64,000 bases of DNA from Vicinamibacterales bacterium (GTDB lineage Bacteria; Acidobacteriota; Vicinamibacteria; Vicinamibacterales; Fen-181). Positions 35,748 through 59,736 of this stretch are shown here, piece after piece; the stretch's first letter is position 1, and every line of letters starts with the position of its first letter. The DNA lies in assembly GCA_041947015.1 (NCBI GenBank), contig JBHGBL010000008.1:5878-69877 (forward strand). The letters run 5' to 3'. The notes below the pieces were generated by a model that was not told the DNA's origin, searched no databases, and saw only the letters and a program-made list of their open reading frames with translations. The translations under genes and the position numbers were made by a program.

Positions 35748-36578
35748 ATGGAAGCGGATAGCGTACCTGCCATCGTCCAGAGATACCGAGGGCAACGAGG
35801 CGCGATGATCTCGATCCTCGAGGAGGTCCAGCAGAAGTACGGCTACCTGCCTGCGGAGGCGCTGCAGGCGGTGGCGCAGGCGATGGACCGCCCGCTCGTC
35901 GATGTCTATGGCCTGGCGACCTTCTACCGATTCTTCCGCCTCGAGCCCCGCGGCAAGCACCTCTGCTCGGTCTGCGTCGGTACGGCGTGCCACGTTCGCG
36001 GAGCCCAGCCGGTCAAGGACGAGTTCGAGAAGCAGCTGCAGGTCAAAGCCGGCGAGACGACTGCCGATGGGGAGTTCACGCTCGAAACGGTGAATTGCCT
36101 CGGAGCATGTGCGCTCGGCCCGGTCGTCGTGATGGACGGCCACTACAACTCCAGCGTCAACGCGACGAAAGTCGGCCAGATCATATCCAAGGCCCGTCTT
36201 GGCACGTCGAAGGCGGACCTTGCGGGTCCGCCCTTCGCGCTGACGGTTGGCTGCTCGCGGTGCAATCACACCCTGATGGATCCGGTCCATCGGATCGACG
36301 ACCTGCCTTCGATACGGCTGACGGTATCCGGGGGCGGTGTCCACGGATGGCTGCGCTTGTCGGCGCTCTACGGCAGCGACAGCCGTGAATCCGAGCATTC
36401 ATACGCCGACCGCGCCATTCTCGACTTCTACTGCCCTCACTGCCACGCGGAGCTCAAGGGTCCGCTGCCGTGCGGCGAGTGCGTGGCTCCGATGGCGACC
36501 ATGATCGTGCGGGAGGGAGGAATCCTGCAGGTGTGCACGCGGAACGGCTGTGCAGGCCACATGTTCGACTTGTCCTGA
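35748..36578 (+). CDS. NuoE/HydC-like [2Fe-2S] subunit with C-terminal Cys-rich extension
   Basis: YGYLP, ATFY..F, CVGTACHVRG...NCLGACALGP. Extra CxxC x3 plus CTRNGC. GGAGG RBS. Confidence 0.9.
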   Translation: MEADSVPAIVQRYRGQRGAMISILEEVQQKYGYLPAEALQAVAQAMDRPLVDVYGLATFYRFFRLEPRGKHLCSVCVGTACHVRGAQPVKDEFEKQLQVKAGETTADGEFTLETVNCLGACALGPVVVMDGHYNSSVNATKVGQIISKARLGTSKADLAGPPFALTVGCSRCNHTLMDPVHRIDDLPSIRLTVSGGGVHGWLRLSALYGSDSRESEHSYADRAILDFYCPHCHAELKGPLPCGECVAPMATMIVREGGILQVCTRNGCAGHMFDLS

Positions 36579-36629
36579 ACCGCTGCCGCCCCGACCGTGT
36601 TCGGGGCCGGCACTCCACAGAGGTTGCGT

Positions 36630-39600
36630 ATGCGAAGGTTGTCTTCCATCGAGGAGCTGAGGGCGTATCGCGCGGTGGTTTTGGACGGGGCCGCGGACAG
36701 CAGGCCGGCGATCGTCGTCTGCGCCGGCACAGCGTGCCAGGCCAGCGGAGCGAACCCCGTGCTGCGCGTCGCCAAGAAACACGTCGTCGAACGCAGGCTC
36801 GGCGACAAGGTGAAGCTTCGGGTTACGGGCTGCCACGGTTTCTGCGAGATGGGTCCGTTCGTGATGACCCAGCCTCAGCAGGCCTTCTACAGCCGGGTGA
36901 AGCTGGACGACGTGCCGAGGATCATCGATGCCGTGGTCGCCGGGGAGTACGTCGAGGAACTGCTCTACCGGGACCCGGTCACTGGCGAGGTCTATAGAAG
37001 CGCCGACGAGATTCCGTTCTTCAAGAACCAGCGCCGGGTCCTGCTCGAGATGAACCGTTACGTCGATCCGATCCGGATCGACACCTACATCGAGCAGGGA
37101 GGCTATGAGGCGTTCGAACGGGTTCTCTCGAAGGGCGATCCCGCCTGGGTGGTAGAGGAGGTGAAACGCTCGGGGCTGCGGGGAAGGGGCGGCGCGGGCT
37201 TCCCGACCGGGAAGAAGTGGGAGATGCTGGCGGCGCAGCCGGATGGCCGCGGGAAGTTCATCGTCTGCAATGCGGACGAGGGCGACCCGGGGGCGTACAT
37301 GGATCGCAGCGTGCTCGAGGGCAACCCTCAGAGCATCATCGAGGGGATGCTGATCGGCGCGTTCGGAACTGGCACGACCAACGGCGCCGTGTACGTCCGG
37401 AACGAGTACCCGCTGGCGGTCAGGCACGTCAGCGTAGCCCTCGCCCAGGCGCGCGACATGGGTCTGGTCGGGCAGAACATCCTTGGCACCGGGTTCTCGT
37501 TCGAGATCTCGATCGTCAAGGGAGCGGGCGCCTTCGTATGCGGGGAGGAAACGGCGCTGATCCGCTCTGTCGAGGGGCGGATGGGCGAGCCGAGGCAGCG
37601 CCCGCCGTACCCCGTTCAGAAGGGCATCGACGGCAAGCCAACGATCATCAACAACGTCGAGACGTGGGCGAACGTTCCGCTCATCTTCCGCGACGGCGCG
37701 GAGAAGTACGCGAGCGTGGGGACCCCGGGCAACGCCGGCTGCAAGATCTTCAGCCTCGTGGGCAAGATCAAGAACACCGGCCTCGTCGAGGTGCCCATGG
37801 GCGTGACGATCAGCGACGTCGTCTACAAGATAGGCGGCGGTCCTCCGGGCAGGGCGAAGATAAAGGCCGTGCAGACTGGAGGACCGTCGGGCGGCTGCAT
37901 TCCCGCGCGGATGTTCGACCTGCCCATCGATTTCGACAGTCTGACCAAGGCGGGTTCGATCATGGGTTCGGGCGGCATGATCGTCATGGACGAGAACACG
38001 TGCATGGTCGATGTCGCCAAATACTTCATGAAGTTCCTCAAGGACGAGTCGTGCGGCAAGTGCTTCACCTGCCGCAAGGGCACGCAGCGGATGTACGAAA
38101 TCCTCGACGACATCTCGACGGGCCGGGCCACTCTCGACCAGGTAGAGCTGCTTCGCGAGCTGGCTGTAGTCGTGAAGGACACGACAATGTGCGGGCTGGG
38201 CCAGACGGCGTCGAACCCGGTTCTCAGCACGCTGCAGTACTTCCCGGATGAGTACCGGCGGCACGTGATAGAGAAGAAATGCGACGCCTTCGTCTGCAAG
38301 GATCTCGTGGGGGCGCCTTGCCAGGCGGCCTGCCCGATAGGGACGGAGGCATGGCGCTACGTCGCGCACATCGCACGGGGCGAGTGGGAGGATGCGTACA
38401 GGGCAATCCGGGAAGCCAACCCGTTCCCATCGGTCTGCGCGCGGGTCTGTGACCACCCGTGCGAGGAGCGCTGCCGCCTGGGGACGACCGGCAGCAGGGC
38501 CGTCGCCATCCGGGCGTTGAAGCGGATTGTGACCGACACCGTGGACCCGGCGACTTATCGCCCGGTCCGCAGGGCAGGCGCTGCGATGGAAGTGCAGAAG
38601 GTGGCCGTTGTGGGCTCCGGTCCCGCCGGCCTGACCGCTGCGCACTACCTCTCCCTCGACGGCTACGACGTCACGGTATTCGAGGCCGACAGCAAGCCGG
38701 GCGGGATGCTCGTCAGCGGCATCCCCTCATACAGGCTGAAGCGGGACGTCCTGAAAAAGGAAATCGACTCGCTCCTCGACGATCACGTCAAGCTGCGCTG
38801 CAACGCGGCGCTGGGCCACGACTTCTCGCTCGAGAGTCTCCTCAGCGACGGCTTCAAGGCGGTGTTCCTGGCGCTCGGTGCCCACAAGAGCCGGCGGTTG
38901 AACATCGAGGGCGAGGACATCGCCGGTGTACAGCCGGCCATGCAGTTCCTGAAGGCCTTCAACCTGCGCGGCACCGTCAGCGCCCGCGGCCGCGTCGGAG
39001 TGATCGGCGGGGGCAACTCGGCGGTCGACGCCGCACGCGTCGCGCTCCGGCAGGAGGGAGTCGAGAGCGTGACGATCTTCTACCGCCGGACCCGGCAGGA
39101 CATGCCGGCGCTGCGCGAGGAAGTCGCATCGGCGGTTGCCGAGGGAATCGGGCTGGAGTGCCTCGTGTCGCCGATCCGCGTGCTCTCGCGGCATGGCCAC
39201 CTCACCGGCATCGAGTGCGTGCGCAACGCGCTTGGACGCGTGGACAGTAGCGGGCGCGGGCAGCCATCGCCTGTGCCAGGGACCGAGTTCACGGTGCCCC
39301 TGGATTACCTGATAGTGACGATTGGCGACGAGCCGGACATCGACTACGTGAGATCGATGGGACTGAAGGTGACCGACCGCGGGACCCTCTGGGTGGACCC
39401 GGAGACCATGCAGACGAGCCGGCCGGGGATCTTCGCCGGCGGCGACGTGGTGACCGGGCCGAATACGGTGGTGCAGGCGATTGCGGCAGGCAAGAAGGCA
39501 GCGATGGTGATAGACCGCTACCTGAGGGGCGAGGAGCTGGTGTCGAGACCGGCAGCGCCGCGGCTGCCGCAGGTCTATGTCGAGCCGGTCGCCGCTGGAG

Positions 39601-39797
39601 GGGAAGCTACGAAGGTGGATAGGGTGGCGCCGCCGACATTGCCGCCCGACGTACGGAAGCGCAGCTTCGCGGAGGTGGAGCTCGCTATCACGGCGGAAGA
39701 CGCCCGCAGGGAGGCGGCCAGATGCCTGCGGTGCGACCTGGAGTTCACGCGCCCGGCGCAGCAGGTCGTGATTCGGGCGACTGGAGAGCCGACATGA
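36630..39797 (+). CDS. NuoF/HydB-like FMN/NADH subunit fused to a GltD-like FAD/NADPH domain
   Basis: N-terminal thioredoxin-like 2Fe-2S (CAGTAC...GCHGFC), SGLRGRGGAGFPTG, NADEGDPGAYMD, CGEET, GGPSGG, ESCGKCFTC. Then PCQAACP/CARVC..PCEERC, GSGPAG, GGGNSA..YRRT, FAGGD. Confidence 0.92.
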   Translation: MRRLSSIEELRAYRAVVLDGAADSRPAIVVCAGTACQASGANPVLRVAKKHVVERRLGDKVKLRVTGCHGFCEMGPFVMTQPQQAFYSRVKLDDVPRIIDAVVAGEYVEELLYRDPVTGEVYRSADEIPFFKNQRRVLLEMNRYVDPIRIDTYIEQGGYEAFERVLSKGDPAWVVEEVKRSGLRGRGGAGFPTGKKWEMLAAQPDGRGKFIVCNADEGDPGAYMDRSVLEGNPQSIIEGMLIGAFGTGTTNGAVYVRNEYPLAVRHVSVALAQARDMGLVGQNILGTGFSFEISIVKGAGAFVCGEETALIRSVEGRMGEPRQRPPYPVQKGIDGKPTIINNVETWANVPLIFRDGAEKYASVGTPGNAGCKIFSLVGKIKNTGLVEVPMGVTISDVVYKIGGGPPGRAKIKAVQTGGPSGGCIPARMFDLPIDFDSLTKAGSIMGSGGMIVMDENTCMVDVAKYFMKFLKDESCGKCFTCRKGTQRMYEILDDISTGRATLDQVELLRELAVVVKDTTMCGLGQTASNPVLSTLQYFPDEYRRHVIEKKCDAFVCKDLVGAPCQAACPIGTEAWRYVAHIARGEWEDAYRAIREANPFPSVCARVCDHPCEERCRLGTTGSRAVAIRALKRIVTDTVDPATYRPVRRAGAAMEVQKVAVVGSGPAGLTAAHYLSLDGYDVTVFEADSKPGGMLVSGIPSYRLKRDVLKKEIDSLLDDHVKLRCNAALGHDFSLESLLSDGFKAVFLALGAHKSRRLNIEGEDIAGVQPAMQFLKAFNLRGTVSARGRVGVIGGGNSAVDAARVALRQEGVESVTIFYRRTRQDMPALREEVASAVAEGIGLECLVSPIRVLSRHGHLTGIECVRNALGRVDSSGRGQPSPVPGTEFTVPLDYLIVTIGDEPDIDYVRSMGLKVTDRGTLWVDPETMQTSRPGIFAGGDVVTGPNTVVQAIAAGKKAAMVIDRYLRGEELVSRPAAPRLPQVYVEPVAAGGEATKVDRVAPPTLPPDVRKRSFAEVELAITAEDARREAARCLRCDLEFTRPAQQVVIRATGEPT

Positions 39798-40471
39798 TTG
39801 ACCTCAAGATCAACGGCATCCCGGTTTCGGTTGAAAAGGGCACGACGCTGCTGGAGGCCGCGACGTTCCTCGGATTCCCGATCCCCACGTTGTGCCATAT
39901 GGAGGGCCTGACGCCCTACGGCGCGTGCAGGTTGTGCGTGGTGGAGATAGGCGAGGAGCCGAAGGCCAGGCTCGTCTCTTCATGCACGTACCCGGCCGAG
40001 CCCGGCCTCGTCGTGCGAACGGCATCGGCGCGCGTCGTCAGGGCGCGAAGGATGATCATCGAGCTGCTGCTGGCCTCGTGCCCGCAGTCGAAGACAATCC
40101 AGGACCTTGCGTCCGCCCACGCCGTGAGACAGCAGCGGTTCAAGCAGGAGTACGAGGACTGCATCTTGTGCGGCCGCTGCATCCGGATGTGCAAGGAGCA
40201 GATGGCGGCGGGCGCCATCGGGTTCCGCAGCCGCGGCGAGAACCGCAGCCTTGGGACCCCGTTCGACAGGAGCTCCGAGGTGTGCAGGCTGTGCGGTGGA
40301 TGCATCTACGTGTGTCCGGCCTGCCAGCTGCGCTGCACCTACAGCGACCCGGAGAAGGTCATCTGCGGGGGCTGCGCCAACCTCGGGCCGCCCTGCCTGG
40401 AGAAGGAACAGTTCGACGACATGATGTGCTACATGAAGCCCTGTGTGGCTTGCGAGATCCGTAAAGACTGA
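39794..40471 (+). CDS. NuoG/HydA N-terminal-like FeS protein with no catalytic domain
   Basis: IPTLC...GACRLCVVE...SC (2Fe-2S), CILCGRC..MC, CRLCGGC.YVCP, plus an 8-Cys tail. ATGA coupling with the upstream gene. Confidence 0.88.
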   Translation: MIDLKINGIPVSVEKGTTLLEAATFLGFPIPTLCHMEGLTPYGACRLCVVEIGEEPKARLVSSCTYPAEPGLVVRTASARVVRARRMIIELLLASCPQSKTIQDLASAHAVRQQRFKQEYEDCILCGRCIRMCKEQMAAGAIGFRSRGENRSLGTPFDRSSEVCRLCGGCIYVCPACQLRCTYSDPEKVICGGCANLGPPCLEKEQFDDMMCYMKPCVACEIRKD

Positions 40472-40492
40472 CCGGAGAAGGAGGAGACGGAC

Positions 40493-42094
40493 ATGTCATT
40501 CTCGAGAATCAACGCTTCGGCCGCCACCCTCACCAAGAACCGCACGGAAGAGTCCATCGTCCCGATCTCCGGCATGTGCGTTACCTGCGTGGACGGGTGC
40601 GTGGGGATGTGCGAGATAGGAAAGTCGGCCTACCGCGGCCACGAGGTGATCTACCCGCAGCCGTTCGGCGTGATAACAACGGCATGCGAGAAGGACTACC
40701 CGCTCGACTACTCGCACTTCAACATCATGGGAACTGCCGTCGGGGCACACGGCGTCGAGGCCGACTCCGACAAGGCGATATTCCCGGCCGTCAGCCTGGA
40801 GACGAGGGTGGGTCGGGAGCTCGACTTGAAGTTCAAGCTGCCCTGGATCATCTCTGGCATCGGATCCACGAACATCGCGAAGAACAACTGGGAGGGGCTG
40901 GCGATAGGAACGGCACTCTCCGGCGTCGGCCTGACGATCGGGGAGAACGTTGCGGGAATGGACCCTGAGACCGTCCTGAAGCACGGGCGCGTCGTCGACA
41001 CCGTGGACCTGAAGAAACGCGTGAAACTCTACACGGACCACCAGCGGGACGGCTATGGCGCGATCATCGTGCAGGCGAACATCGAGGACACGAGGCTGGG
41101 CGTGCAGGAGTACGCCATCGATAAGCTCGGCGTTCAGGCAGTCGAGCTCAAATGGGGGCAGGGTGCGAAGGACATCGGCGGCGAGGTGAAGATCAACAAC
41201 CTCAAGAAGGCCCAGATGCTCTACGAGCGGGGCTACATCGTCCTGCCCAATCCGACCGACGCGAACGTCATCCGGGCCTTCGAGCGGGGTGCGTTCAAGG
41301 AGTTCGAGAGGCACTCGCGCGTGGGCATGGTGACAGAGGAAGGCTTCGCCGCCCGCGTCGAGGAGCTGAGGAAGGCCGGGGCCAAGTACATCTTCCTGAA
41401 GACCGGCGCTTACCGACCGGCCGACCTCGCCCGGGCAGTCGCCTTCGCGTCGAAGTACGGGATCGACATGCTGACGATCGACGGCGCCGGAGGGGGAACC
41501 GGCATGAGTCCCTGGCACATGATGAACGAGTGGGGCGTGCCCACGGTCGAGCTGCACTCGCTTGCGTACCAGTACGCGAAGAGAATCGCGGACGCCGGCG
41601 GCTACGTGCCACCCCTCTGCTTCGGCGGCGGGTTCACCTTCGAGGATCAGATTTTCAAGGGCCTGGCCCTCGGCGCGCCCTTCGTGAAGATGATTGGACA
41701 GGCCAGAGCACCCATCGCGGCAGCAATGGTCGGGAAGACCATCGGGCGGGCCATCGAGGAGAACCAGATCCCGGTCTACGTCGAGAGGTTCGGCAACACG
41801 AAGGACGAGATCTTCGTGACGGCAACCGAACTCCGCAAGCACCTGGGCGACGATGAGTTCGAAAAGCTCCCGGCAGGGGCCATCGGGCTCTACACTTACT
41901 ACGAGCGGCTGGCGCAGGGCCTGAGGCAGCTGATGGCGGGCAGCCGCAAGTTCACCATCGCTCACATTTCGCGCGGCGACATCGCCGCGCTGACCCAGCA
42001 CGCGGCGGCGGTCAGCGGCATCCCGTTCATAATGGACGTGGACAAGGAAGAGGCAGACTCGATCATCGCGAGCGCGCTCCCCTCGCACGTGTAG
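40493..42094 (+). CDS. Stand-alone FMN-binding glutamate synthase domain protein (GltB2-like)
   Basis: ELKWGQGAKDIGGE, LKTG, IDGAGGGTG, FKGLALGA, GLRQLMAG. N-terminal CVTCVDGC..MC. AAGGAGG RBS. Confidence 0.88.
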   Translation: MSFSRINASAATLTKNRTEESIVPISGMCVTCVDGCVGMCEIGKSAYRGHEVIYPQPFGVITTACEKDYPLDYSHFNIMGTAVGAHGVEADSDKAIFPAVSLETRVGRELDLKFKLPWIISGIGSTNIAKNNWEGLAIGTALSGVGLTIGENVAGMDPETVLKHGRVVDTVDLKKRVKLYTDHQRDGYGAIIVQANIEDTRLGVQEYAIDKLGVQAVELKWGQGAKDIGGEVKINNLKKAQMLYERGYIVLPNPTDANVIRAFERGAFKEFERHSRVGMVTEEGFAARVEELRKAGAKYIFLKTGAYRPADLARAVAFASKYGIDMLTIDGAGGGTGMSPWHMMNEWGVPTVELHSLAYQYAKRIADAGGYVPPLCFGGGFTFEDQIFKGLALGAPFVKMIGQARAPIAAAMVGKTIGRAIEENQIPVYVERFGNTKDEIFVTATELRKHLGDDEFEKLPAGAIGLYTYYERLAQGLRQLMAGSRKFTIAHISRGDIAALTQHAAAVSGIPFIMDVDKEEADSIIASALPSHV

Positions 42095-42259
42095 ACACCC
42101 TCAGGCCTCCCAGCAGCCTGCAGCAGCCGGGGCGACTTGGACGCGCCCCGGCTGCAGTTCGCCGAGTTCCCTGCGATCCCACCCAAGGCAGGCGAGGAGT
42201 CCATCTGCATGCCCGCATCTCCCGATGGCTTCGGGACCCGGCCGAATACTGACCGGTAG

Positions 42260-43744
<1,485 letters not shown>

Positions 43745-43772
43745 GGGCCGGAGGACCGGCGCGAACAACGAA

Positions 43773-45521: not shown

Positions 45522-45522
45522 G

Positions 45523-46890: not shown

Positions 46891-46920
46891 CGGCCGCATC
46901 GAGACGCCGGGCAACGCGCG

Positions 46921-48579: not shown

Positions 48580-48631
48580 GAGTGAGGCCATTCGCCGGGC
48601 AGGCCGCACGGCACAGGTAGCAGGTCAAAAC

Positions 48632-49495: not shown

Positions 49496-49520
49496 CGCTG
49501 GCCGGAGCGGTGGGACAGGC

Positions 49521-50363: not shown

Positions 50364-50760
50364 TGTGAATCGGGATGCGGCGCGCCGGATCCCGCGCAGA
50401 TCCAATCTTGACAGCGTAGCTGGTGCGATCGGCCACGTCCTCGGCCGTGACGATGTGGACGTCGAGCATCCCGCCGGCGTCGTGCCCGGTCCGGAGGCGG
50501 TTCGTCTCGCCGAGGCAAAGGCTCCAACCCTCGAGCCAAAGCATCAGGGCTTCTCTCTGAGCGGGCGTGCCCTCGAAGAGCACGAGCAGGTCGATGTCGC
50601 TCCCCGGGCCCGCCGTTGCGTCCTTGGTGCTTCCGATTACGTAGAGCGCCCTCACGCCGAAGCGGGCTCCGTCGAGGTGGGAGCCGAGGCGTTCGGCCAT
50701 CTGCAGCCTCCAACGCGAGTCGTCCCGCAGCAGGTCCCATGCAGCTTCTTCGTTTGCCAT
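50344..50760 (-). CDS. Pol-beta superfamily nucleotidyltransferase domain protein
   Basis: LYVIGSTKDATAGPGSDIDLLV (GS...DxD) and a third Asp in LDVHIV. AGGAG RBS. Confidence 0.85.
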   Translation of the reverse strand: MANEEAAWDLLRDDSRWRLQMAERLGSHLDGARFGVRALYVIGSTKDATAGPGSDIDLLVLFEGTPAQREALMLWLEGWSLCLGETNRLRTGHDAGGMLDVHIVTAEDVADRTSYAVKIGSARDPARRIPIHITPGRA

Positions 50761-50770
50761 GCGGGGCTCC

Positions 50771-52480
50771 TTACCCCGGTTTGACTATCAGCCCGCGGCC
50801 GATACGGCCGTCCACCATGATGTCCAGGGGCGCGGGTAGAACGACATGGCGGGCGAACCTCGATTCGCCCGCTGCCTGCTGCGCATCGAGCCAGGGCCAG
50901 TCCACCTCGTAGGGCTCGCCGTGGCCCACCGAAAAGTAGAGGACCCGGCGGCTGGCAATGTTGTGGAAGAAATGCGACCCGTGGCTCGCCATCACGTCGA
51001 ACTGCGGCAGCGTGGCTTCGACGATGGCGCGAGCGCCCGCGATCTGGCCGAAGTCTGCTGGTATTCCCGCGGACGCGTCGGTGGTTCCCCAGCGGCCGAA
51101 ACCAATGAGCAGGTACGGCCGCCCGCTCGCGACCAGCGCCTGGTTCTCTGCCTCGAGCGCCTCGACGATCTCGGCTCCGTGCCGGGGTTCGAACGCGGAC
51201 GGTTTGACGTAGACGATGTCCCTGATGGTACGCACAATCCCGTTCCCCATCACTCGATCCGAGGCAGCCAGCACCCGTGCGCGCGGGAGGTCCACGACCG
51301 GTACTTCAACCTCTGGGTAGGCAGCTGCCATCGGCCTAACCTGCAGCAGGTCGAACCTCGCCGGCAGCGGCCCGGGCTCGCCGAACGTCATGGCGAACTC
51401 GATCTCGACGGGGCGGCCGATCGCGATGCGCAGGAGGCCGAGCAGATCGACCACGAGGGGGACGAGCGGGATCCGCCGTGCCTTCAGGATTGGTGCGAAA
51501 TCGAGGACGCGCGGCCCGGGCAAGGCTAGCCCCGAGACGATGCGGTCGTCGTCGGCCGAATACGTCGAGGCCAGGAAGGTGAGCGCTCCATCCGCCTCCG
51601 CTTCGGCAAGCGTGTACCGCCTCATCGCACCTCGTTCCAGGCCGTCGGCCCACCTGCCCGCTCGGCAGTCTCCTCCTGAGGCGAGGTCGATGGCCCAGAA
51701 GCTCTTCTGCGTTTGCTCGACCAGGTCGATCGGAGCGCCATAGGGGGGGTTGGCGTGGGGCTGCGCAGGCGAACATCGCCATGCCAGGCCTTCCTCTACG
51801 ATCGTCCGGCCGAGTCCGAGTGCGAGCTCCACCACGCCGTCGTCGGGACGCGCAAGGCCGGCCGCGTAGAAGTTGTACGAGCGCGCGACGCCGGAAATGT
51901 GCGGGTAGAAACGGTCGTTTCGTTCTCTGCCTGCCGCCAGTTGAACGACGACCCCCATCTTCTCGTCGCGATCCAAACGGCCGGACGACGCACGGTATCG
52001 GCGCGCGCTGCGGGCAAAGGCCGACGCGTAAACTCTCTTCACCGCCGCGCAAGCTTCCTCGAGCCTGGTCGCCGGACTGCCGCGGCTCGCAACCATGAGG
52101 GTCGAGTAGACTCCAGCGAAGGGATCCTCCGCGGCGTCCTCCAAAACGCTCGACGAGCGTACAGCGAGAGGGCCACGATGTCGTTCGAGCCACCCTTCGA
52201 GGGCTTGCACGGCGCCGTCAGGGAGCGAGGCGGCAGCGAAAGAGCGAACGAGTTCGTCGTCCGGCGGCTCCCCCCCGGCTGTGAAGCGAGCCAATCCGTT
52301 TTCGTCCAGGAATCTTTCGAAGGCGTCCGTGGAGACTGCAATCAGCGCCGGGATGCCGATTTCCAATCCAGCGAAGAGCCGCGACGCGAGGCCGGCTTCC
52401 GCCAAGACCTCCCGGCCGATGAAAAGGCCTCGGGCCTTGGCGCCGATCTCGCCGCCGCCGTAAACGGCGAAGGGGTCCAT
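50771..52480 (-). CDS. PEP-synthase/PPDK N-terminal-like ATP-grasp protein with His-motif domain
   Basis: IGAKARG, LAVRSSSVLED...FAGVY, EKMGVVVQ, SGVARS, LGLGRTIV, VEIEFA, LQVRP, GRWG, GSHFFHN. Confidence 0.88.
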   Translation of the reverse strand: MDPFAVYGGGEIGAKARGLFIGREVLAEAGLASRLFAGLEIGIPALIAVSTDAFERFLDENGLARFTAGGEPPDDELVRSFAAASLPDGAVQALEGWLERHRGPLAVRSSSVLEDAAEDPFAGVYSTLMVASRGSPATRLEEACAAVKRVYASAFARSARRYRASSGRLDRDEKMGVVVQLAAGRERNDRFYPHISGVARSYNFYAAGLARPDDGVVELALGLGRTIVEEGLAWRCSPAQPHANPPYGAPIDLVEQTQKSFWAIDLASGGDCRAGRWADGLERGAMRRYTLAEAEADGALTFLASTYSADDDRIVSGLALPGPRVLDFAPILKARRIPLVPLVVDLLGLLRIAIGRPVEIEFAMTFGEPGPLPARFDLLQVRPMAAAYPEVEVPVVDLPRARVLAASDRVMGNGIVRTIRDIVYVKPSAFEPRHGAEIVEALEAENQALVASGRPYLLIGFGRWGTTDASAGIPADFGQIAGARAIVEATLPQFDVMASHGSHFFHNIASRRVLYFSVGHGEPYEVDWPWLDAQQAAGESRFARHVVLPAPLDIMVDGRIGRGLIVKPG

Positions 52481-55432
52481 CTAGGCTCCCGGCTTCATCA
52501 CGATGCCCGTATTCGACCGCCCGTCGAGGAGGATCTTCAATGGCGCGGCGCACGCGATGTGCCGGAGGAAGGTCGTTTCGGTCTCGGCCGGCTGGCGTTC
52601 CAGCCAGCAGGTGTCAAGAAGGTCGCCGGGCCGGTGCCGATCGACCGTCAGGTACCCGATCCCGAACGAGACGAGGTTCTGGAAGAAGTGCGAGCCGTCT
52701 GAGGGCTCCACCTCGATGTCGGAGAGTCCCGTCTCGACAATGCATCGCACGCCCGCGATCTGTGCCCACTTGACCGGTATGCCGAGCCACGGGTCGGCGC
52801 TTCCCCACCTCCCCGGTCCAATCAGGAGGTAGGGACGCCCCATCTGCTGGAGCCTCCGGTTCATTTCGCCCACCTCGGCGGCGACCTTCGCGGTATGAGC
52901 GCGCTCGAACCGTTCCGGGCGGACGTAGACGACGTCCGACACGTTCTCGATGCTGCCGTTTCCAAGCGAGGAGTGCGAGACGCAGACCGCCTGGTCGCCG
53001 GCGGTCTCGTCGATTCGAACGTCGTAGGCTTCGGAGCCCAGAACGAGGGGGCGGAGCTGCAAGAAGGCGAACTGGTGCGGCTCTCTGGCGTCGCTCGAAA
53101 GGTTGACGGCGAACTCTATCTCGACCGGGCACGACGCCGCGGCAGCGCCGACCTCGAGAAGGAAAGCGGTGACGTCGGCCAGCGGGAACCTGTGCCCCTT
53201 CAAAATGCTCGCCATGGTGACGAGCCTTGTGCCGTCCCGCGAGATGCCGTCGTAGATGGCGTCGGTATCGGGCGAGTAGACGGAACCAACGGCGTGGAGC
53301 GTACCGTGCTTCTCGGCGACCGAAATGTCCAGCGGCACCAGGTCGGGCGCATAGAGGCTGGACTGCGAGAGGTCGAGCGCGAGGAACGTCCGCTGGGAGT
53401 TCTCGATGTACTCGGCCGGGGTGAACGACTGGATTGGCTTGCGCGGGTGGCGGGGCGAGAACCGCACGCACCTTCCGCCTTCGACGACCGTCTTTCCCAT
53501 CCCGAGCGCCACCGACACCACGCCGTCCTCGGGCTTGACGCCGCCCGTGGCGTAGAAGTTCAGCGAGCGGCCCACGCCGGCGAGATCGGGGTAGAGATAC
53601 TCGCCGTGCGACCGACCGACAACCTGCTGGATGACAACCGCCATCTTCTCTTCTTCGAGACGGTTGGGCAGCGAGGCCATGTATGCCTTGGGGTCGCCGT
53701 GGTAGGTCGACGCGTAGACGCGCTGGATAGCGACGGAAAGCTCCTCCAGCCGCGTTTCCGGGTCATCGGCGTTGTTGGGGGTCATGAACGTCTTGTAGAT
53801 CCCCGCGAAAGGCTGGTACAGAGCATCCTCGAGGAGGCTGGAGGAGCGGACGGCGAGAGGATAGCGGACCCACTGCAGGAAGTCCCACAGGTGCGCGAGC
53901 ACGTCCCGCGGCAGCTCGTGCTCCATGAACGCCCGTGTCACGCGTTCGTCGTCGGATTCCTGAAGCGCGAACTCCATCAGGCCCGACGCGCGCATGAAGC
54001 GGTCGAACACCTCGGTCGTGAGGACGACGGTCGGGGGTACCTGGATGCTGATGCCCGAGAACCGGTTCTGAAGCCCGTAGGCTGATATCAGGGAGTTTAT
54101 GAAGGCGAGGCCGCGGCCTTTGCCTCCGAGCGACCCGTCGCCGATTCTGACGAACCCGCTGCCGCTTTCGAAGGCGCGCGCCGAATAGTCCACGACAACG
54201 CCCGCCACCTGGCGCTGCCGTGTGCCACGTACCGCGTCGAGCAGCGCCTGCCGGAGCGCTCCGGCTGCCGGCGATGCGTCGAGCAGCCTGCGAACGGTTT
54301 CTGCGAGTTCCGCCTGCCCGCGGGCGAGCAGCCAGGTCGAGAAGTCTGGGCGCGCCACGTTGGCCCGAAGCACCTCGTCGGAGACCGCTTCCGCAGCCCA
54401 CTCCAGAGCTCGGAGGTCCGGGACCCGGCTGATCACGCGCCCATCGGGGCCCTGGAACACGAAGTCGCCGAACCCGAGTCGACTCTGCATGAAATTGCGC
54501 AGATCGCCGAGCAGGGTAGGGGAGTTCTTGTCAATGAACTCGAGGCCGACCTCCGATGCCAGGTGCGCGTTTCGCGAGTCCGACTGCATCAGGATAGGGA
54601 GGCCGGGCGAATTCTCGAGGAAGTGCTTCGCTGTGCGGAAGCCGGCGTCGGCTACCACCTTGCCTTGGACTGGAAAGGCGGCGTCCAGGATGACGCCGAG
54701 AAGATGCTCGCGGTGACGGTCGTAGAGCTCGAGAGCCTCCTCGTAGCACCGCGCGAGGAGAACCTTGGGCCGCGCCCGCGCGCGCATCACCTTCTGTGCC
54801 CGGGTGGGACTGGCCGCCTGCAGCGCGTGCACCTGGTTGAAGATCTCGGTGTACAGCATCGGGAGGTACGACGAGTAGAACTGCACCGAGTCCTCGACGA
54901 GGATGATGCTCCTTACGCCGGCGACGCAGGCGTCGTGCCAGGCGTTGCGCCTGTCCTCGACGTTCTTGACGATGGCGAGGAACAGTCGGACGTCTCCGAG
55001 CCAGACGAAGAGGCCATCGACGCCCGAGACCCCGGTTCCGGCCTCGAGCACGCTAGCTTCCCTGGGGCTGCAAGCCAGCAGGACAACGGGGACCTCCGGG
55101 TTCACCGAACGCACGGCGCGCCCGAACTCCGAGACCTCCATGTTGCCGACCCGCGCCATGGAGATCACCAGGTCGAACCGCTCCTTCTGGAGGCGAGCCA
55201 GCGCCTCGGCAGCCGTCGAGACGCGCTGTATCGACGGCGTGAAACGAAGTTCCAAATCCAGGTACTCCGAGAGCAGCATCTCGGAGAACCTCCAGTCCTC
55301 GATGAAGGTGTAGTAGTCGTACAGGCTGCTGACGAGCAGGAGATTGCTGACCTTCCACGGCATCAGGGCGTCGTACGGCACCCCGGCCTCGGGGAGGCTT
55401 CCGACAATCTCGCCGAGCACCGCGTCGCGCAT
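52481..55432 (-). CDS. Receiver domains fused to a PEP-synthase-like ATP-grasp plus His-motif domain
   Basis: N-terminal pseudo-REC plus REC (ILVEDS...VILDAAFP...DKNS), then GGKGRG, AVRSSSLLED, EEKMAVVIQ, LQLRP, GPGRWGS, GSHFFQN. Confidence 0.9.
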   Translation of the reverse strand: MRDAVLGEIVGSLPEAGVPYDALMPWKVSNLLLVSSLYDYYTFIEDWRFSEMLLSEYLDLELRFTPSIQRVSTAAEALARLQKERFDLVISMARVGNMEVSEFGRAVRSVNPEVPVVLLACSPREASVLEAGTGVSGVDGLFVWLGDVRLFLAIVKNVEDRRNAWHDACVAGVRSIILVEDSVQFYSSYLPMLYTEIFNQVHALQAASPTRAQKVMRARARPKVLLARCYEEALELYDRHREHLLGVILDAAFPVQGKVVADAGFRTAKHFLENSPGLPILMQSDSRNAHLASEVGLEFIDKNSPTLLGDLRNFMQSRLGFGDFVFQGPDGRVISRVPDLRALEWAAEAVSDEVLRANVARPDFSTWLLARGQAELAETVRRLLDASPAAGALRQALLDAVRGTRQRQVAGVVVDYSARAFESGSGFVRIGDGSLGGKGRGLAFINSLISAYGLQNRFSGISIQVPPTVVLTTEVFDRFMRASGLMEFALQESDDERVTRAFMEHELPRDVLAHLWDFLQWVRYPLAVRSSSLLEDALYQPFAGIYKTFMTPNNADDPETRLEELSVAIQRVYASTYHGDPKAYMASLPNRLEEEKMAVVIQQVVGRSHGEYLYPDLAGVGRSLNFYATGGVKPEDGVVSVALGMGKTVVEGGRCVRFSPRHPRKPIQSFTPAEYIENSQRTFLALDLSQSSLYAPDLVPLDISVAEKHGTLHAVGSVYSPDTDAIYDGISRDGTRLVTMASILKGHRFPLADVTAFLLEVGAAAASCPVEIEFAVNLSSDAREPHQFAFLQLRPLVLGSEAYDVRIDETAGDQAVCVSHSSLGNGSIENVSDVVYVRPERFERAHTAKVAAEVGEMNRRLQQMGRPYLLIGPGRWGSADPWLGIPVKWAQIAGVRCIVETGLSDIEVEPSDGSHFFQNLVSFGIGYLTVDRHRPGDLLDTCWLERQPAETETTFLRHIACAAPLKILLDGRSNTGIVMKPGA

Positions 55433-55488
55433 GACCTTCCCCGGCTGGCGTTACAGACGGCGCCGACATAGCGGCGCCCATCGAACCG

Positions 55489-58242
55489 TCACATCACGCG
55501 TTCGGATGCATCCGCCAGGAACCCGATTGCCTCGTCCTTGTCGCCGTCCATGATGACGTTGAGCTCACGGTTGCCCGCGGCTTCGGCCACATCGATCACC
55601 CTCACGACGTTCTCGAGGTACGCGTACTCCGGGAGCAGCGTCGCCAGCGAGTTGGGCGCCGTGCGGAAGAACTCCTCGTTGAAGACGATCCCGTCTTCGT
55701 CGGGGTAGAGCGCCAGGTAGCGTATCTTCGCCTCGACCAGGTCCTGGAAGAAGTGCGTGCCGAAGGACAGGTCGGGGACGTAGCCGCCCTTCTTGCGCGC
55801 GATCTCGACGAGGAGCGCCGTGTTCGAGATGCCCGCGTATGTTACCCGAACACCGAGCGTAATATCCCCTCGGCTCCCCCACCGGCCGGGGCCCATGAGC
55901 GCGAAGCCGCGCCGTGGGAGCACCGTGTTCAGTCGGCTCACCGCCTCGCCGACCGCGATCATGTCCGTCATTTTCGAAAGGCCTGCGTACCCCGTCGGAT
56001 CCACGTAGACGATGTAGCGGATCCCTCGCACCTGGGCGGTGCTCACGTAGCGGTTCGCGGTGAAGAGCTTGCGAGACTCCGGGATGCCGGACGGGACAGG
56101 CACGCGCCGCTCGTCGCCGCCGCCGCTTTGCGGCCGGCACTGCACTATGTAGAGATCCTTGCCGTCATGTGCGAACTCGACGTCCACCGGCGCCCCGATC
56201 GCGTCCTTCAGCGCGGCCATGATCTCCTTCATCTGCTTGAGAAAGTCGGTGCCTTCGAGCAGCCCGGCGAAGGTGACCACGACGTCATCGGACTCGGGCC
56301 GGAACGTCAGGCCCATTGGGCGCCGCAGCGTGTCGTTCGAGTAGACCGAGAAGATCTTGTCGATCATCGGCATCCGGCGCCCGACCTCCCGGAGCAGGAC
56401 CTCGATCCGCGGCGACTCGAAGCGCCCGGTCTGCATGTTGAGGACGTCCACCTGATGCTGCGAGTAGTGCCTGATCTCGTCGGGCGTCACGTTGACCCGG
56501 AGGCCAGGTTGGCCTGGACAGACAAGCACCGGATAGTCGTCGCCCACGCGATCCACGGCCCGTGTGCCGAGGCCCATCACCATCCTTATCGCGCCGTCCT
56601 CGCGCCGGATCCGGGGCGACCACCTGAACTCGTTCTGGCTGAATGCGACCCCTGCGAACGCCGGCAGGAAGTAGCGGCCGACGCGGACCCCGACGACACG
56701 CTGGATGAGTACCGCCATCTCCTCCATGAAGTCCACGAGGTCGCGTTCCTTCCGGTACTGGATCGGGTCAGGGCCGAAGAGAGACGCGTAGATCTCGGCT
56801 ATGGCATCCGTAAGAGCAGCCAGGCGCTCTTCCTTTGTGCCGGCATTGGCGAGGAACAGGCTGCGGTACTTGCCCGAGAACGCGGCGCCCTCGTTGTCTT
56901 CGAGCAGGCTCGATGAGCGGACAACCAGCGGCCAGTCGCCCAGATCGTCCAGCGCGAGCTTCAACCCGTTCAGCAGCTCGGGCGGGAAGAACGAGTGCTT
57001 GAAGGTCTGCTCGAGGTACGGGTAGCTCTGGCGCACCTCGTCGACCGGGTAGTACTTGAAGCTCTGGATGTCTTCAAGGCTGTTGTAGCGAATGAAGTCC
57101 AGGAGCCCGTCCGACGTCACCACCCACGTGTGCGGCACCCTGACGCGCTCGATGAGCGGGTTGCCGCGGCCCACCTTGCGCAGGATGTGCTCGGCGAGGA
57201 ACAAGCCCGTTGCCTTCCCCCCGAGCTTCCCGTTCCCGCGAGGCGGCCCGATGACTCGCGAGAGGATGCGTCCGAAATCATGGATGGTCAGATAGCGCTT
57301 CGCGATGCCGATGAGCGACAGGCGGTCGCTCAGGAACCGCCGGATCAGGGCCACTCTCGCGTTCAGGTCGTCTGACGGCGCAAGCGCAGCCTCTCCCTCC
57401 TGCGCGGAGCGGCAGAACCGGTTGACGATGTCGCTCATCTCGATGAGCGGCAGGTCTCGCTGCTCGGAAGCCACCGTCAGGAAGCCCAGCTTGTCCTGAC
57501 GTATCCACTGTTTCAGGAGCGTCGAGAGTGCGGCGTCGGGCACGGTTATCGACGCAACCCGGATGATCTCCTCGAGCACCCGGTTCAGCGTCTTCATGTC
57601 CTGCTTGGGTAGCGGCTGGTTCCCCCCTCCACTCTCTCGTTCGCTGTAGAGAGCGGGGTCGAGCTGCTGGATCAGCCGCTGGACTCCCGGCACGCCGAGC
57701 TTCGAGAGGTGGTTCATGAGCCGGCGAAGCAAACGCCGCCACAGGACCGGGTCGGTTTCCTCCAGCAAGTCGAGGACGATCTCCCACTCCGGCTTCTGCA
57801 CAGGCGCCTGAGACTCGATGTGCCCGGCGTGACTGGCCTCGGCCAGCCTCTCCTCGATTGCGCGCCCGAGCCAGCGCGCAATGGTCTGGATGAGCTTCCG
57901 CTCTTCCAGAAGGAACGGATCGTCCCCGTCGTGATCCTCGAGGTAGGCAACCTCGAGGCTGCCGACGAACTTGCCATCGGCGACGATGTTCGCGCGCTGC
58001 ATCCACTGAGTGGCCTCGAAGCCAGCCGTCTGGTAGACCGAGTCGGCGTAGGTAATTCGGGCCCTGCACACCTCCGGGCGCTGCCACCCCATCGGAAGGG
58101 TTTCGACCACCTGGCGGAGCACCTCATCGATTGGAAGGTCCGCCCTCTGGACGATATCCGAAACGGCGTACAGGCACTGGAGCTCCTTGGCCCGCTCGGT
58201 CAGGTGCGCTGTGGCGGTCTGCTCCCGTCGTTCGGTGGCCAT
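55489..58242 (-). CDS. GAF-like sensor domain fused to a PEP-synthase-like ATP-grasp plus His-motif domain
   Basis: ERAKELQCLY N-terminal domain, GGKATG, VRSSSLLED..FSGKY, EEMAVLIQ, GLGTRAV, VEFA, VQCRP, GPGRWGS, GTHFFQD. Confidence 0.9.
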   Translation of the reverse strand: MATERREQTATAHLTERAKELQCLYAVSDIVQRADLPIDEVLRQVVETLPMGWQRPEVCRARITYADSVYQTAGFEATQWMQRANIVADGKFVGSLEVAYLEDHDGDDPFLLEERKLIQTIARWLGRAIEERLAEASHAGHIESQAPVQKPEWEIVLDLLEETDPVLWRRLLRRLMNHLSKLGVPGVQRLIQQLDPALYSERESGGGNQPLPKQDMKTLNRVLEEIIRVASITVPDAALSTLLKQWIRQDKLGFLTVASEQRDLPLIEMSDIVNRFCRSAQEGEAALAPSDDLNARVALIRRFLSDRLSLIGIAKRYLTIHDFGRILSRVIGPPRGNGKLGGKATGLFLAEHILRKVGRGNPLIERVRVPHTWVVTSDGLLDFIRYNSLEDIQSFKYYPVDEVRQSYPYLEQTFKHSFFPPELLNGLKLALDDLGDWPLVVRSSSLLEDNEGAAFSGKYRSLFLANAGTKEERLAALTDAIAEIYASLFGPDPIQYRKERDLVDFMEEMAVLIQRVVGVRVGRYFLPAFAGVAFSQNEFRWSPRIRREDGAIRMVMGLGTRAVDRVGDDYPVLVCPGQPGLRVNVTPDEIRHYSQHQVDVLNMQTGRFESPRIEVLLREVGRRMPMIDKIFSVYSNDTLRRPMGLTFRPESDDVVVTFAGLLEGTDFLKQMKEIMAALKDAIGAPVDVEFAHDGKDLYIVQCRPQSGGGDERRVPVPSGIPESRKLFTANRYVSTAQVRGIRYIVYVDPTGYAGLSKMTDMIAVGEAVSRLNTVLPRRGFALMGPGRWGSRGDITLGVRVTYAGISNTALLVEIARKKGGYVPDLSFGTHFFQDLVEAKIRYLALYPDEDGIVFNEEFFRTAPNSLATLLPEYAYLENVVRVIDVAEAAGNRELNVIMDGDKDEAIGFLADASERVM

Positions 58243-58275
58243 CGAGGGTCTCCCATGCAACATTACATTATCGAC

Positions 58276-58300
58276 AAAAAAGCCCGGGGTCGCAGCCGGG
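58276..58300 (-). terminator. Intrinsic terminator-like hairpin downstream of the second GDH
   Basis: Minus strand CCCGG-ctgcgacc-CCGGG-C-TTTTTT. Confidence 0.6.
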
Positions 58301-58443
58301 ATCCGCTGGGCGGTCCGGTGCGTCCCGGGCCTCGTAGAGAAGTCCCTGAATCAATAACTACAACCTATAACCTATGAATCATAACGCCTCGCCGGCCCCC
58401 CGTCGCCACTCCCGTCGAGTCTGCCCGGAGAAGCCGCACTCGC

Positions 58444-59736
58444 TCACACCCACCCGCGGTCCTTGCATGCCTTCGCCACGCGGCTGACCGCGATGACGTA
58501 GGCCGCATCGCGCATGTACAACTTCTGGGTTCGCGCGAGCTCGCTGACCGCCTGGAAGGCAGAGGTCATCTTCTGGTCGAGCTTCGTGAGGACCTCGTCT
58601 TTCTCCCAGTAGTAGTTCATGTTGCCCTGCACCTGCTCGAAGTAGCTGCAGGTGACCCCGCCGGCGTTGGCGAGGAAGTCCGGCACGATGAAGATGCCCC
58701 GCGACTCGATGACCTTGTCTGCCTCGGGTGTCGTCGGGCCGTTGGCGCCTTCGACGATGAGCTTTACCCTGGGGCTTATCCGCGTGACGTTGTCGGCCGT
58801 CACCTGGTTCTCCAGCGCGCACGGCAGCAGGATGTCGACGTCCTGCTCGATCCATGCGCCGCCCGGCAGCCGCTCGTAGCCGAGCTCCTTGGCCTTCTGC
58901 TTGTCGATGCCGCCGAAGCGGTCCGTGATGCCGAGCAGCTGATCGACGTCGAGGCCGCTCATCCTGCGATACGTGTAAGACGTCTGGTCTTCCTGATCCC
59001 AGCAGCCGACCGCGATGACCTTGCCGCCGAGCTCCTGATACTTCCGGATGGCGTACTGCCCGACATTGCCGAAGCCCTGCACGCTCGCGGTGGTATTCGG
59101 GATGCTCAGGCCAATCTCGCCCGCGGCTTCGCGGAGGGTGAACACGACGCCGAACCCGGTCGCTTCCGTGCGGCCGAGCGAGCCGCCCATGCCCACCGGC
59201 TTGCCGGTGATGAACCCAGGTTCCTTCCCGCCGTGGATGAGCTCGAGCTCGTCGAGCATCCAGATCATGTGCTGCGGGGAGGTCATGACGTCGGGCGCGG
59301 GGACGTCGGTCGTCGCGCCGACGTTCTTGTGGAGCTGTCGCACCCAGCCTCGGCAGATGGCTTCCTGCTCTCGCATCGTGAGGTGATGCGGATCGCAGAT
59401 GACGCCGCCCTTGCCGCCGCCCAGCGGGATGTCGACGACCGAGCACTTCCACGTCATCCATGTGGCGAGCGCGCGGACGGTGTCGAGCGTCTCGTGGGGA
59501 TGGAAACGGATTCCGCCCTTGCAGGGCCCTCGCGCGTCATTGTGCTGGACGCGGAAGCCGCGGAACACCTTCGTCGTCCCGTCGTCCATGCGGACGGGGA
59601 TCGCGAAGCTGTACTCGCGCAGGGGCCAGCGGAGCAGGTCGCGGGTCGGCTGGTCGAGACCGAGGATGTCGGCGACCTTGTCGAACTGCGCCTGCGCCAT
59701 CTCGAACGCATTGAACGCCTTGCTCGTCGTCACCAC
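58444..59736 (-). CDS. Glu/Leu/Phe/Val dehydrogenase (glutamate dehydrogenase, GDH-2 type)
   Basis: GFRVQHN.ARGP.KGGIRFHP, MTWKC, PLGGGKGG, DVPAPD, TGKP...GGS.GR.EATG, QGFGNVG, EGANGP, PDFLANAGGV. AGGAG RBS before GTG. Confidence 0.93.
   Translation of the reverse strand: MVTTSKAFNAFEMAQAQFDKVADILGLDQPTRDLLRWPLREYSFAIPVRMDDGTTKVFRGFRVQHNDARGPCKGGIRFHPHETLDTVRALATWMTWKCSVVDIPLGGGKGGVICDPHHLTMREQEAICRGWVRQLHKNVGATTDVPAPDVMTSPQHMIWMLDELELIHGGKEPGFITGKPVGMGGSLGRTEATGFGVVFTLREAAGEIGLSIPNTTASVQGFGNVGQYAIRKYQELGGKVIAVGCWDQEDQTSYTYRRMSGLDVDQLLGITDRFGGIDKQKAKELGYERLPGGAWIEQDVDILLPCALENQVTADNVTRISPRVKLIVEGANGPTTPEADKVIESRGIFIVPDFLANAGGVTCSYFEQVQGNMNYYWEKDEVLTKLDQKMTSAFQAVSELARTQKLYMRDAAYVIAVSRVAKACKDRGWV

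Follow-up and report, generated by a model that had tools for sequence, protein, structure and literature searches.

Glutamate dehydrogenase (GDH) stands where carbon and nitrogen metabolism meet, and to our knowledge no dedicated covalent control system is known for the bacterial enzyme. Among enzymes of other pathways, isocitrate dehydrogenase is regulated by AceK and PPDK/phosphoenolpyruvate (PEP) synthase by PDRP/PSRP, and PtsP (enzyme I-Ntr), in which a GAF sensor is fused to a phosphotransfer enzyme, uses PEP and has swivel and barrel domains. The present analysis concerns an island of 15 genes around two GDHs in a Vicinamibacterales bacterium (Acidobacteriota; assembly GCA_041947015.1). 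The island lies in a stretch of 64,000 nucleotides of contig JBHGBL010000008.1 (C35:5878-69877; hereafter the window, this whole stretch, with a G+C content of about 66%), which belongs to a genome of 4.39 Mb in 36 contigs rated 100% complete. The island is a merger of two widespread, uncharacterised modules, each made of one GDH type and its own partner of the PPDK_N (ATP-grasp) type. These partners are read here, with a probability of about 45%, as signal-gated, ATP-using effector enzymes that would control the neighbouring GDH.

The island proteins share with PEP synthase, PPDK, rifampicin phosphotransferase and PigC/RedH the PF01326 ATP-grasp domain, which is found in three paralogs (E 4e-27 to 2.8e-52) with its core residues kept. 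Unlike PEP synthase and PPDK, they have no detected swivel domain or PEP/pyruvate barrel, a different conserved C-terminal domain being present instead, and their family adds sensor or REC domains at the N-terminus and a nucleotidyltransferase (NTase) at the C-terminus. The likeness to the GlnD/GlnE/PII/NtrBC system is in workings only, namely a nitrogen-assimilation enzyme set amid an NTase, a hydrolase, sensor domains and a pair of histidine kinase (HK) and response regulator (RR). Homology is absent, the NTase belongs to the minimal PF01909 type, GlnE, GlnD and PII are not found in the genome, the enzyme concerned is GDH and not glutamine synthetase (GS), and the main partner is an ATP-grasp protein. 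As for NtrB/NtrC, the island has an HK with HisKA and HATPase domains and an RR with REC, AAA+ and HTH_8 domains, both below the cut-offs of the NtrC and NR(II) models.

A large dedicated protein for one branch-point enzyme, of the kind represented by AceK and PDRP/PSRP, would fit the role proposed here, although these protein families are unrelated to the PPDK_N partners and the modification of GDH is a proposal. PtsP resembles the island proteins in having a small N-terminal sensor before a phosphotransfer-type enzyme linked to nitrogen status, but swivel and barrel domains are not detected in the latter and GAF is not confirmed. As judged from its sequence, the module does not appear to carry the full set of features that defines any of the systems resembled, and it is rated as new as a system, with a function that is predicted only and with parts that belong to known superfamilies. 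In full-text literature searches, the matches, taken at the level of entries and abstract openings, included no publication linking GDH with PPDK_N-only proteins.

Conservation of two GDH-partner modules

The genes of the two modules and their accessory genes are as follows, lengths being given in amino acids (aa) and ORF standing for open reading frame.

42284..43744, plus strand: gdhA, NADP-type GDH; PRK09414 767 bits (cut-off 536), the match beginning at ORF residue 46; ELFV domains
46921..48579, plus strand: diverged PPDK_N-family paralog, 552 aa; alignment with the three other paralogs, no Pfam/NCBIfam match
48530..49495, plus strand: REC-like protein, 321 aa; residues 176-311 against residues 177-320 of the REC-PPDK_N protein
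49443..50363, plus strand: calcineurin-like metallophosphoesterase (MPE), its gene converging on that of the NTase; PF00149 Metallophos E 1.3e-6
50344..50760, minus strand: minimal NTase, 138 aa, free-standing; PF01909 NTP_transf_2 E 3.5e-6 and PF18765; translation with a G-S...D-x-D motif
50771..52480, minus strand: short PPDK_N protein, 569 aa; PF01326 E 4e-27; ATP-grasp core and C-terminal domain
52481..55432, minus strand: REC-PPDK_N protein, 983 aa; two REC-like domains and core; PF01326 E 6.3e-36, Response_reg E 1.4e-5
55489..58263, minus strand: sensor-PPDK_N protein, 924-aa ORF (917 aa in a 100%-identical database record); N-terminal sensor, helical region and core; PF01326 E 2.8e-52
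58444..59736, minus strand: gdh2, 430-aa GdhA_Arch-like GDH; NF040817 460 bits, below the cut-off of 750 of this archaeal GdhA_Arch model; both ELFV Pfam domains; start codon GTG, preceded by AGGAGA

All 15 genes named in the original prediction for this DNA are present, in the order and on the strands claimed. The plus strand reads NuoE-like, NuoF::GltD, NuoG-like, gltB2, gdhA, HK, RR, 552-aa paralog, 321-aa REC-like protein and MPE, and the minus strand, converging on the MPE gene, reads gdh2, 924-aa sensor-PPDK_N, 983-aa REC-PPDK_N, 569-aa PPDK_N and 138-aa NTase; the intergenic gaps are short. The picture of nine regulators enclosed by two GDHs holds for this genome, but the units conserved elsewhere are two separate GDH-partner pairs, termed modules A and B.

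Module A consists of gdh2, often a short PPDK_N gene, then sensor-PPDK_N, usually with a fused NTase, and an MPE gene running in the opposite direction. Within 40-kb regions of 11 relatives, 8 hold gdh2, the 569-aa-type gene, sensor-PPDK_N, NTase and MPE together, 2 hold gdh2 and sensor-PPDK_N only and 1 holds degraded copies, the linkage of gdh2 with sensor-PPDK_N being found in 10/11. For named genome records, gdh2 is directly upstream of sensor-PPDK_N in 7 of the 9 loci. A scan of metagenome contigs gave at least 598 pattern matches, of which at least 511 encode a relative; the analysis used the best 80 loci. Of these, 61 have an upstream flank long enough for judgement, and 56 of the 61 show a gdh2-type gene at a distance of no more than 2.6 kb (on the opposite strand in 2 of these 56), the loci without it being L050, L060, L064, L077 and L082. 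A second PPDK_N gene is found between gdh2 and sensor-PPDK_N in 43/68 metagenome loci, the NTase comes next in 56/69 and the MPE gene is present in 27/58; no further gene family is conserved around sensor-PPDK_N in these loci. Orthologs of gdh2 upstream of sensor-PPDK_N genes share 62-80% identity and those of the MPE 47-65%.

Module B consists of gdhA followed by REC-PPDK_N. In loci from genomes of the order, a gdhA-type gene immediately precedes the REC-PPDK_N ortholog (43-47% identity) in 17 cases out of 17, including families without module A. In a phylum sample of 151 evenly drawn genomes, full-length REC-PPDK_N orthologs (E<=1e-100) are present in 61 genomes and in 40 of 106 genera. For 29 loci returned from this sample, 27 of which could be judged within a 1.5-kb flank, a GDH gene is next door in 22 (18 with gdhA upstream on the same strand, 2 divergent and 2 of gdh2 type) and no GDH is found within the flank in 5. 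Modules A and B stand head to head, as in the window, in genomes G036 and G005 and, in degraded form, in G001.

The association on which the original prediction was built is therefore conserved beyond this genome, GDH and PPDK_N-only genes adjoining in most loci examined. One may suppose that these genes adjoin merely through common descent within one lineage, their proximity carrying no function, since many of the loci come from related Acidobacteriota and the counts are not independent. This explanation is scarcely credible: the gene order is kept at 47-70% protein identity and through rearrangements, it is also found in records named Riflebacteria, Bipolaricaulota, Deltaproteobacteria and Aminicenantes, and the NTase fusion described below does not depend on gene order.

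In 60 of 61 loci the NTase and sensor-PPDK_N share a single open frame, without a stop, and consequently the free-standing NTase of the window is the exception. The MPE gene accompanies 27 of the 46 loci with NTase and none of the 12 loci without it. These 12 are the loci closest to the window protein (56-70% identity) and they keep gdh2, whereas the long NTase-fused forms share 48-52% identity with the sensor-PPDK_N protein of the window. The window thus combines a short-form sensor-PPDK_N with free copies of accessory genes typical of the family. Calcineurin-like phosphoesterases include protein phosphatases, phosphodiesterases, nucleotide phosphodiesterases and dinucleotide hydrolases. With such activities in the family, the coupling of NTase and MPE (27/46 versus 0/12) also fits an explanation in which the core, NTase and MPE make or break a nucleotide-type signal or modify the NAD(P) used by the GDHs and the redox complex, NAD(P)H being common to GDH and the NuoF::GltD complex. 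This is highly improbable in view of the minimal type of the NTase (PF01909), of Pfam/NCBIfam scans of the window proteins in which no nucleotide-cyclase-like or NAD-kinase-like family appears, and of the 12 loci closest to the window protein, which do without NTase or MPE and keep gdh2. A PADLOC search found no defence system, with weak generic matches at 24 bits for the NTase and 25.7 bits for the MPE and none for the PPDK_N proteins, and sequence searches of the PDB with MPE, NTase and GltB2 gave chance-level rows only.

Other observations concern the genes of these modules in other genomes. The gdhA genes beside REC-PPDK_N (L152-L168) carry a 7-residue insertion in the nucleotide-binding domain, which is absent from the window gdhA (42284-43744), from the gene of L039 and from the unpaired gdhA of G026. 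A second, fragmented module copy, with matches to gdhA, REC-PPDK_N, MPE, NTase and sensor-PPDK_N in pieces, is found at G001:C1:2365000-2384999 (L032) and is probably decaying. Many proteins of about 1100 aa (P0272-P0300), from records named Scalindua, Brocadiia and Planctomycetota, are GDHs fused to phosphoglycerate kinase, and other GDHs are fused to REC, HD-GYP or GGDEF domains (P0254, P0260).

The PPDK_N family and its C-terminal domain

Two parts are common to all four PPDK_N paralogs of the window, namely the ATP-grasp core (PF01326) and, at the C-terminus, a domain of about 180 residues. By alignment, 4/4 paralogs keep the ATP-grasp residues. The C-terminal domain is covered by no Pfam model and, in 16 sequences of all paralog types, has the invariant residues N52, L64, G68, R69, G71, G78, E94, G107, H109, F110, F111 and Y121. 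No match to the PEP/pyruvate-binding barrel (PF02896) was obtained in Pfam scans of the window proteins and family members. The same core occurs in three settings, preceded by a sensor domain, preceded by REC domains or on its own, and the short 569-aa form has no substrate-binding domain besides it. The best solved relative of the core is the ATP-grasp part of a Listeria deposit named 'phosphoenolpyruvate synthase' (5hv1/5fbs; E 1e-6), an enzyme which we take to be rifampicin phosphotransferase, and the nearest named models for the PPDK_N proteins are RedH, PigC, rifamycin phosphotransferase and PEP synthase, that is, ligases and phosphotransferases.

The fourth paralog, predicted as a plus-strand dikinase at 46921-48579, has no Pfam or NCBIfam match but is upheld as a family member by alignment: the 552-aa protein aligns over its full length with the other three paralogs, keeps their invariant columns and shares 28% identity with the core of the REC-PPDK_N protein. 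For the neighbouring protein predicted as REC (48530-49495), the support is a single match, to the second of the two REC-like domains in REC-PPDK_N (25% identity, E 1e-7). Because the 552-aa protein resembles the PPDK_N paralogs and the 321-aa protein this second REC-like domain, the two genes seem to be a copy of a REC-PPDK_N gene that has split and diverged. Both occupy the site downstream of gdhA where relatives hold REC-PPDK_N, and an ortholog of the 552-aa protein is found in 0/40 relatives.

The family is large. For the 569-aa protein, 6591 of 8000 scored candidates are relatives at E<=1e-10, and for the 924-aa protein 5759 relatives reach E<=1e-30; the profile of the C-terminal domain retrieves 2440, 1734 and 728 representatives among 1.84 billion at E<=1e-3, 1e-10 and 1e-30 respectively, the lengths of the proteins carrying this domain clustering near 580, 920-1060 and 990-1005 residues. 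The records come from Acidobacteriota (among them an NCBI record of a 57%-identical protein that names the cultured Mesoterricola sediminis), Aminicenantes, Riflebacteria, Bipolaricaulota, Deltaproteobacteria, Planctomycetota, Zixibacteria and Fischerbacteria. They are named 'hypothetical', 'PEP/pyruvate-binding domain-containing protein' or 'pyruvate, water dikinase', and many of them are probably misannotated. Three proteins of 1523-1654 aa (P0364-P0366) contain two copies each of the new C-terminal domain and are probably fusions of short PPDK_N and sensor-PPDK_N proteins.

Sensor domain and two-component genes

Two further genes of the island follow gdhA.

43773..45521, plus strand: HK; HisKA and HATPase_c
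45406..46890, plus strand: RR with REC, degenerate sigma-54-type AAA+ and HTH_8; Pfam (REC, Sigma54_activat, HTH_8); start likely at a Met 40 codons into the ORF

Residues 210-343 of the HK correspond to the sensor domain of the 924-aa sensor-PPDK_N protein (residues 15-146), with 38% identity and E 3e-20. The original prediction had labelled this domain GAF, a label that was rejected: the Pfam GAF model matched 1 of 11 and then 3 of 16 members, with a best E of 0.034. A profile search of PDB sequences with the sensor domain gave no match above chance.

The RR scores 210 bits against the NtrC model TIGR01818 (cut-off 558.6) and the HK 95.5 bits against the NR(II) model (cut-off 240), so neither cut-off is reached. 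In the translated RR, the usual motifs of the AAA+ domain, those for nucleotide binding and sigma-54 contact, are lost, and the protein probably works without sigma-54, which is encoded in the genome. Promoter-like -24/-12 (sigma-54) sites are not in excess (17 found versus 19.5 expected), and none of this pattern was found upstream of gdhA or gdh2. Among the loci examined, an HK and an RR gene follow gdhA in one other locus only, L039 (Thermoanaerobaculia). There, four ELFV dehydrogenase genes (gdh2, gdhA and two at 31-35% identity) surround the REC-PPDK_N, sensor-PPDK_N, HK and RR genes at L039:5402-20932.

Nitrogen metabolism of the genome and co-occurrence

The genome has two ELFV dehydrogenases only, both in the island, and glutamine synthetase is present. 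In the whole genome no match was found for the glutaminase and GXGXG domains of GltB (PF00310, PF01493), for PII, for the Amt transporter or for GlnE (PF03710) and GlnD (PF08335), the last two being likewise not found in 11/14 control genomes; apart from gltB2, PF01645 gave a single weak match of 24 bits. As PII, GlnD and GlnE are all missing from these matches, a different nitrogen control system in this genome is plausible. The lack of matches to Amt and to glutamate synthase (GOGAT) suggests that the organism probably lives on amino acids and would have to choose between ammonium release and fixation.

Of 41 genomes of the order, 31 have a PPDK-like partner and 10 do not; canonical GOGAT was found in 6 of the former and 9 of the latter, and PII in 8/31 versus 10/10. 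The phylum sample was split by REC-PPDK_N only, the genomes without it including the unpublished G086 and G063. Here GOGAT remains rarer with REC-PPDK_N (12/61 versus 35/90, odds ratio 0.38, p 0.013), in a test that, like the others of this kind, overstates its case because the genomes are kin and not independent. The module as a simple replacement of PII, an idea that held within the order, was rejected across the phylum, where PII occurs in 22/61 genomes with REC-PPDK_N and 42/90 without (p 0.24). The module thus tends to accompany a GDH-centred nitrogen metabolism. In the phylum sample as a whole, canonical GOGAT (GXGXG at E<=1e-40) is not found in 104/151 genomes and PII (E<=1e-10) in 87/151.

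Dikinase relatives spend ATP on the activation of other carbonyl or hydroxyl groups. It may then be asked if the partners are coupled to GDH metabolically, PPDK_N spending ATP to activate a substrate so that GDH or GltB2 aminates it without GS-GOGAT and the MPE later removing the phosphate. Several data agree with such a pathway: the partner genes share an operon with the enzyme gene that precedes them and show very strong conservation, their nearest named models (RedH, PigC, rifamycin phosphotransferase, PEP synthase) belong to ligases and phosphotransferases, canonical GOGAT is not found in the genome and is rarer in genomes with REC-PPDK_N (12/61 versus 35/90), and the same partner comes after GltB2 in L082. 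A dikinase-based catabolic system has also been published, as far as the excerpts of its report go (10.1101/2022.04.28.489975). This pathway is nevertheless improbable. The 569-aa form has no substrate-binding domain besides the core, sensor and REC inputs would be unusual in a pathway enzyme, the active sites of GDH and GltB2 are unrelated, and an organism in which Amt is not found is apparently not built for scavenging scarce ammonium.

The neighbouring redox complex and the flanks

Upstream of gdhA, the plus strand holds four genes of a redox complex.

35727..36578, plus strand: NuoE/HoxE-like 2Fe-2S subunit (BfuC-like); PF01257 2Fe-2S_thioredx E 1.9e-49 and HoxE/NuoE NCBIfam models
36597..39797, plus strand: NuoF-like FMN/Fe-S::GltD-like FAD/NAD(P)H fusion, 1066 aa; Complex1_51K, NADH_4Fe-4S, Fer4_20 and Pyr_redox_2; nuoF_fam 449 bits on residues 156-557, PRK12771 443 bits on 526-1048
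39722..40471, plus strand: short NuoG/HoxU-like 2Fe-2S and 4Fe-4S subunit, 249 aa; Fer2_4, Fer4_7 and HoxU/NuoG N-terminal models; the true start may lie further downstream in the ORF
40493..42094, plus strand: GltB2, FMN-binding glutamate synthase family, 533 aa; PF01645 Glu_synthase 57.7 bits

The electron path of GOGAT is formed by GltD and the FMN domain of GltB. The island complex has this FMN domain (PF01645) and a GltD-like domain only: GltB2, which Atlas places at 0.99 in clusters of about 530 aa named 'FMN-binding glutamate synthase family', is without glutaminase (PF00310) or GXGXG (PF01493) domain, neither being found elsewhere in the genome. As the genome lacks a glutaminase domain, the complex is likely to support a glutamine-independent, ammonia-dependent glutamate synthesis, with electrons from NAD(P)H and possibly ferredoxin. 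According to excerpts of their reports (PMC10482914, PMC12018979), the Bfu-type complexes StnABC and NfnABC are built on a NuoE/NuoF/NuoG-like scaffold with a GltD-like module, and the island complex is alike in having NuoE-, NuoF- and NuoG-like subunits and a GltD-like FAD/NAD(P)H domain. By the same excerpts this domain is on the NuoG-like subunit in StnC, whereas it is on the NuoF-like subunit in the island, where moreover the NuoG-like subunit has only 249 aa and a GltB2 subunit is added.

The GOGAT-like character claimed for this complex in the original prediction is borne out by its domains, yet it is a neighbour in few lineages only. The complex is an occasional neighbour outside the conserved core: gltB2 is found in 0/40 relatives at E<=1e-30 and in 5/80 metagenome loci. 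The complex adjoins PPDK_N genes in L033, L034, L042, L082 and L100 and is farther off in L048 and L049. At L082:126-5195 and L100:2083-6738 the NuoF-like gene matches the NuoF part only, from which it follows that the GltB2 complex also exists without a fused GltD domain.

The genes flanking the island are unrelated to it: one side has an S1 protein, two acyl-CoA dehydrogenases and an 839-aa ORF, the other GH127, VWA and TPR genes. The 839-aa ORF (32641-35160), directly upstream of the island, has no Pfam match at E<=1e-4. The GC fraction is flat over the island (0.64-0.67 end to end), and a composition scan therefore gives no sign of foreign origin, of a donor or of an island boundary. For one island protein, the nearest loci with a name come from Acidobacteriota and Thermoanaerobaculia metagenome-assembled genomes (59-67% identity), and also from one of Riflebacteria.

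Proposed function of the PPDK_N partners

One enzymatic core found behind a sensor, behind REC or alone is typical of signalling output domains, and for this reason the common PPDK_N core is read as a signal-gated, ATP-consuming effector domain. The core would be switched on either by a ligand bound to the sensor domain, which is shared with the neighbouring HK, or by phosphorylation of REC. It would then act on the co-encoded GDH, the presumed target, most likely by means of a covalent mark, which may be placed through phosphoryl transfer by the core and, in the long forms, through nucleotidyl transfer by the NTase. The MPE would take the mark off, NTase and MPE forming a second write/erase pair. 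The pay-off of such a control, as far as chemistry and physiological direction can be inferred, would be the choice of which GDH runs, the NADP-type (anabolic) or the other, so that the direction of glutamate/2-oxoglutarate flux is set and no futile cycle arises. A more ambitious form of this proposal is held only tentatively and with some doubt: the core with its novel C-terminal His/Arg domain may represent a new class of signal-transduction output enzyme, a sensor- or REC-gated ATP-grasp protein modifier that covalently switches a specific GDH, with NTase and MPE as a second write/erase layer.

Several results weigh against control of GDH by the partners. The swivel domain model PF00391 matches 0 of 32 PPDK_N family members at E<=10, and hhalign comparison of the C-terminal domain with 17 true swivel domains gave probabilities of 0.2-1.9%, equal to those of unrelated controls in three set-ups. 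A phosphoryl relay via the invariant His is consequently a guess, the C-terminal domain showing no detectable likeness to a swivel domain. In L033 and L034 no gdh2 is upstream and the NuoE/NuoF::GltD/NuoG'/GltB2 genes converge on sensor-PPDK_N instead, and in L082 the sensor-PPDK_N-NTase gene comes after the NuoEF-GltB2 complex, again without gdh2. From these three loci it follows that the partner is tied to the reaction or pathway and not strictly to the GDH protein. Identities of 48-70% are kept across phyla, a degree of conservation that one would sooner expect in enzymes than in signalling proteins. No fusion of GDH with PPDK_N was found, PF01326 being absent from all 120 listed of 151 long gdh2 relatives (E<=1e-40). 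Finally, with the PII counts of the phylum sample, the complementarity with the canonical PII/GOGAT system weakens under wider sampling.

The lack of GDH fusions among those 120 listed proteins and the GltB2 in place of gdh2 in L082, which fits a shared metabolite better than a shared protein target, also speak for a reading in which the PPDK_N proteins act as sensors of nitrogen or carbon status that signal to targets elsewhere, for example from the invariant His to REC. The GDH genes would then be in the operon only through co-regulation or because GDH makes the sensed metabolite. Sensor and REC input domains, and the position of the window paralogs beside an HK, an RR and a REC-like protein, would suit this arrangement as well. 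We regard it as unlikely, given that most loci have no REC protein or transcription factor and hold only gdh2, PPDK_N genes, NTase and MPE, and that each GDH type keeps its own partner type, which a global sensor would not need. Control of the neighbouring GDH by its PPDK_N partner is the preferred reading.

Conclusion

The pairing of GDH with PPDK_N proteins points to an undescribed control of a central step in nitrogen metabolism. The partner proteins are common, REC-PPDK_N occurring in 61/151 phylum genomes and relatives being named from at least 8 phyla-level groups. As GOGAT is not found in 104 and PII in 87 of these 151 genomes, the textbook scheme of nitrogen control does not hold for these soil bacteria, which are abundant. 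With the module, a concrete, clonable pair of one GDH and one neighbour is at hand for asking how glutamate flux is controlled. If the covalent-switch reading is true, this would be the first dedicated covalent control system for a bacterial GDH, and it would be the main switch of nitrogen flux in many Acidobacteriota and in those members of other phyla where PII and GOGAT are not found.

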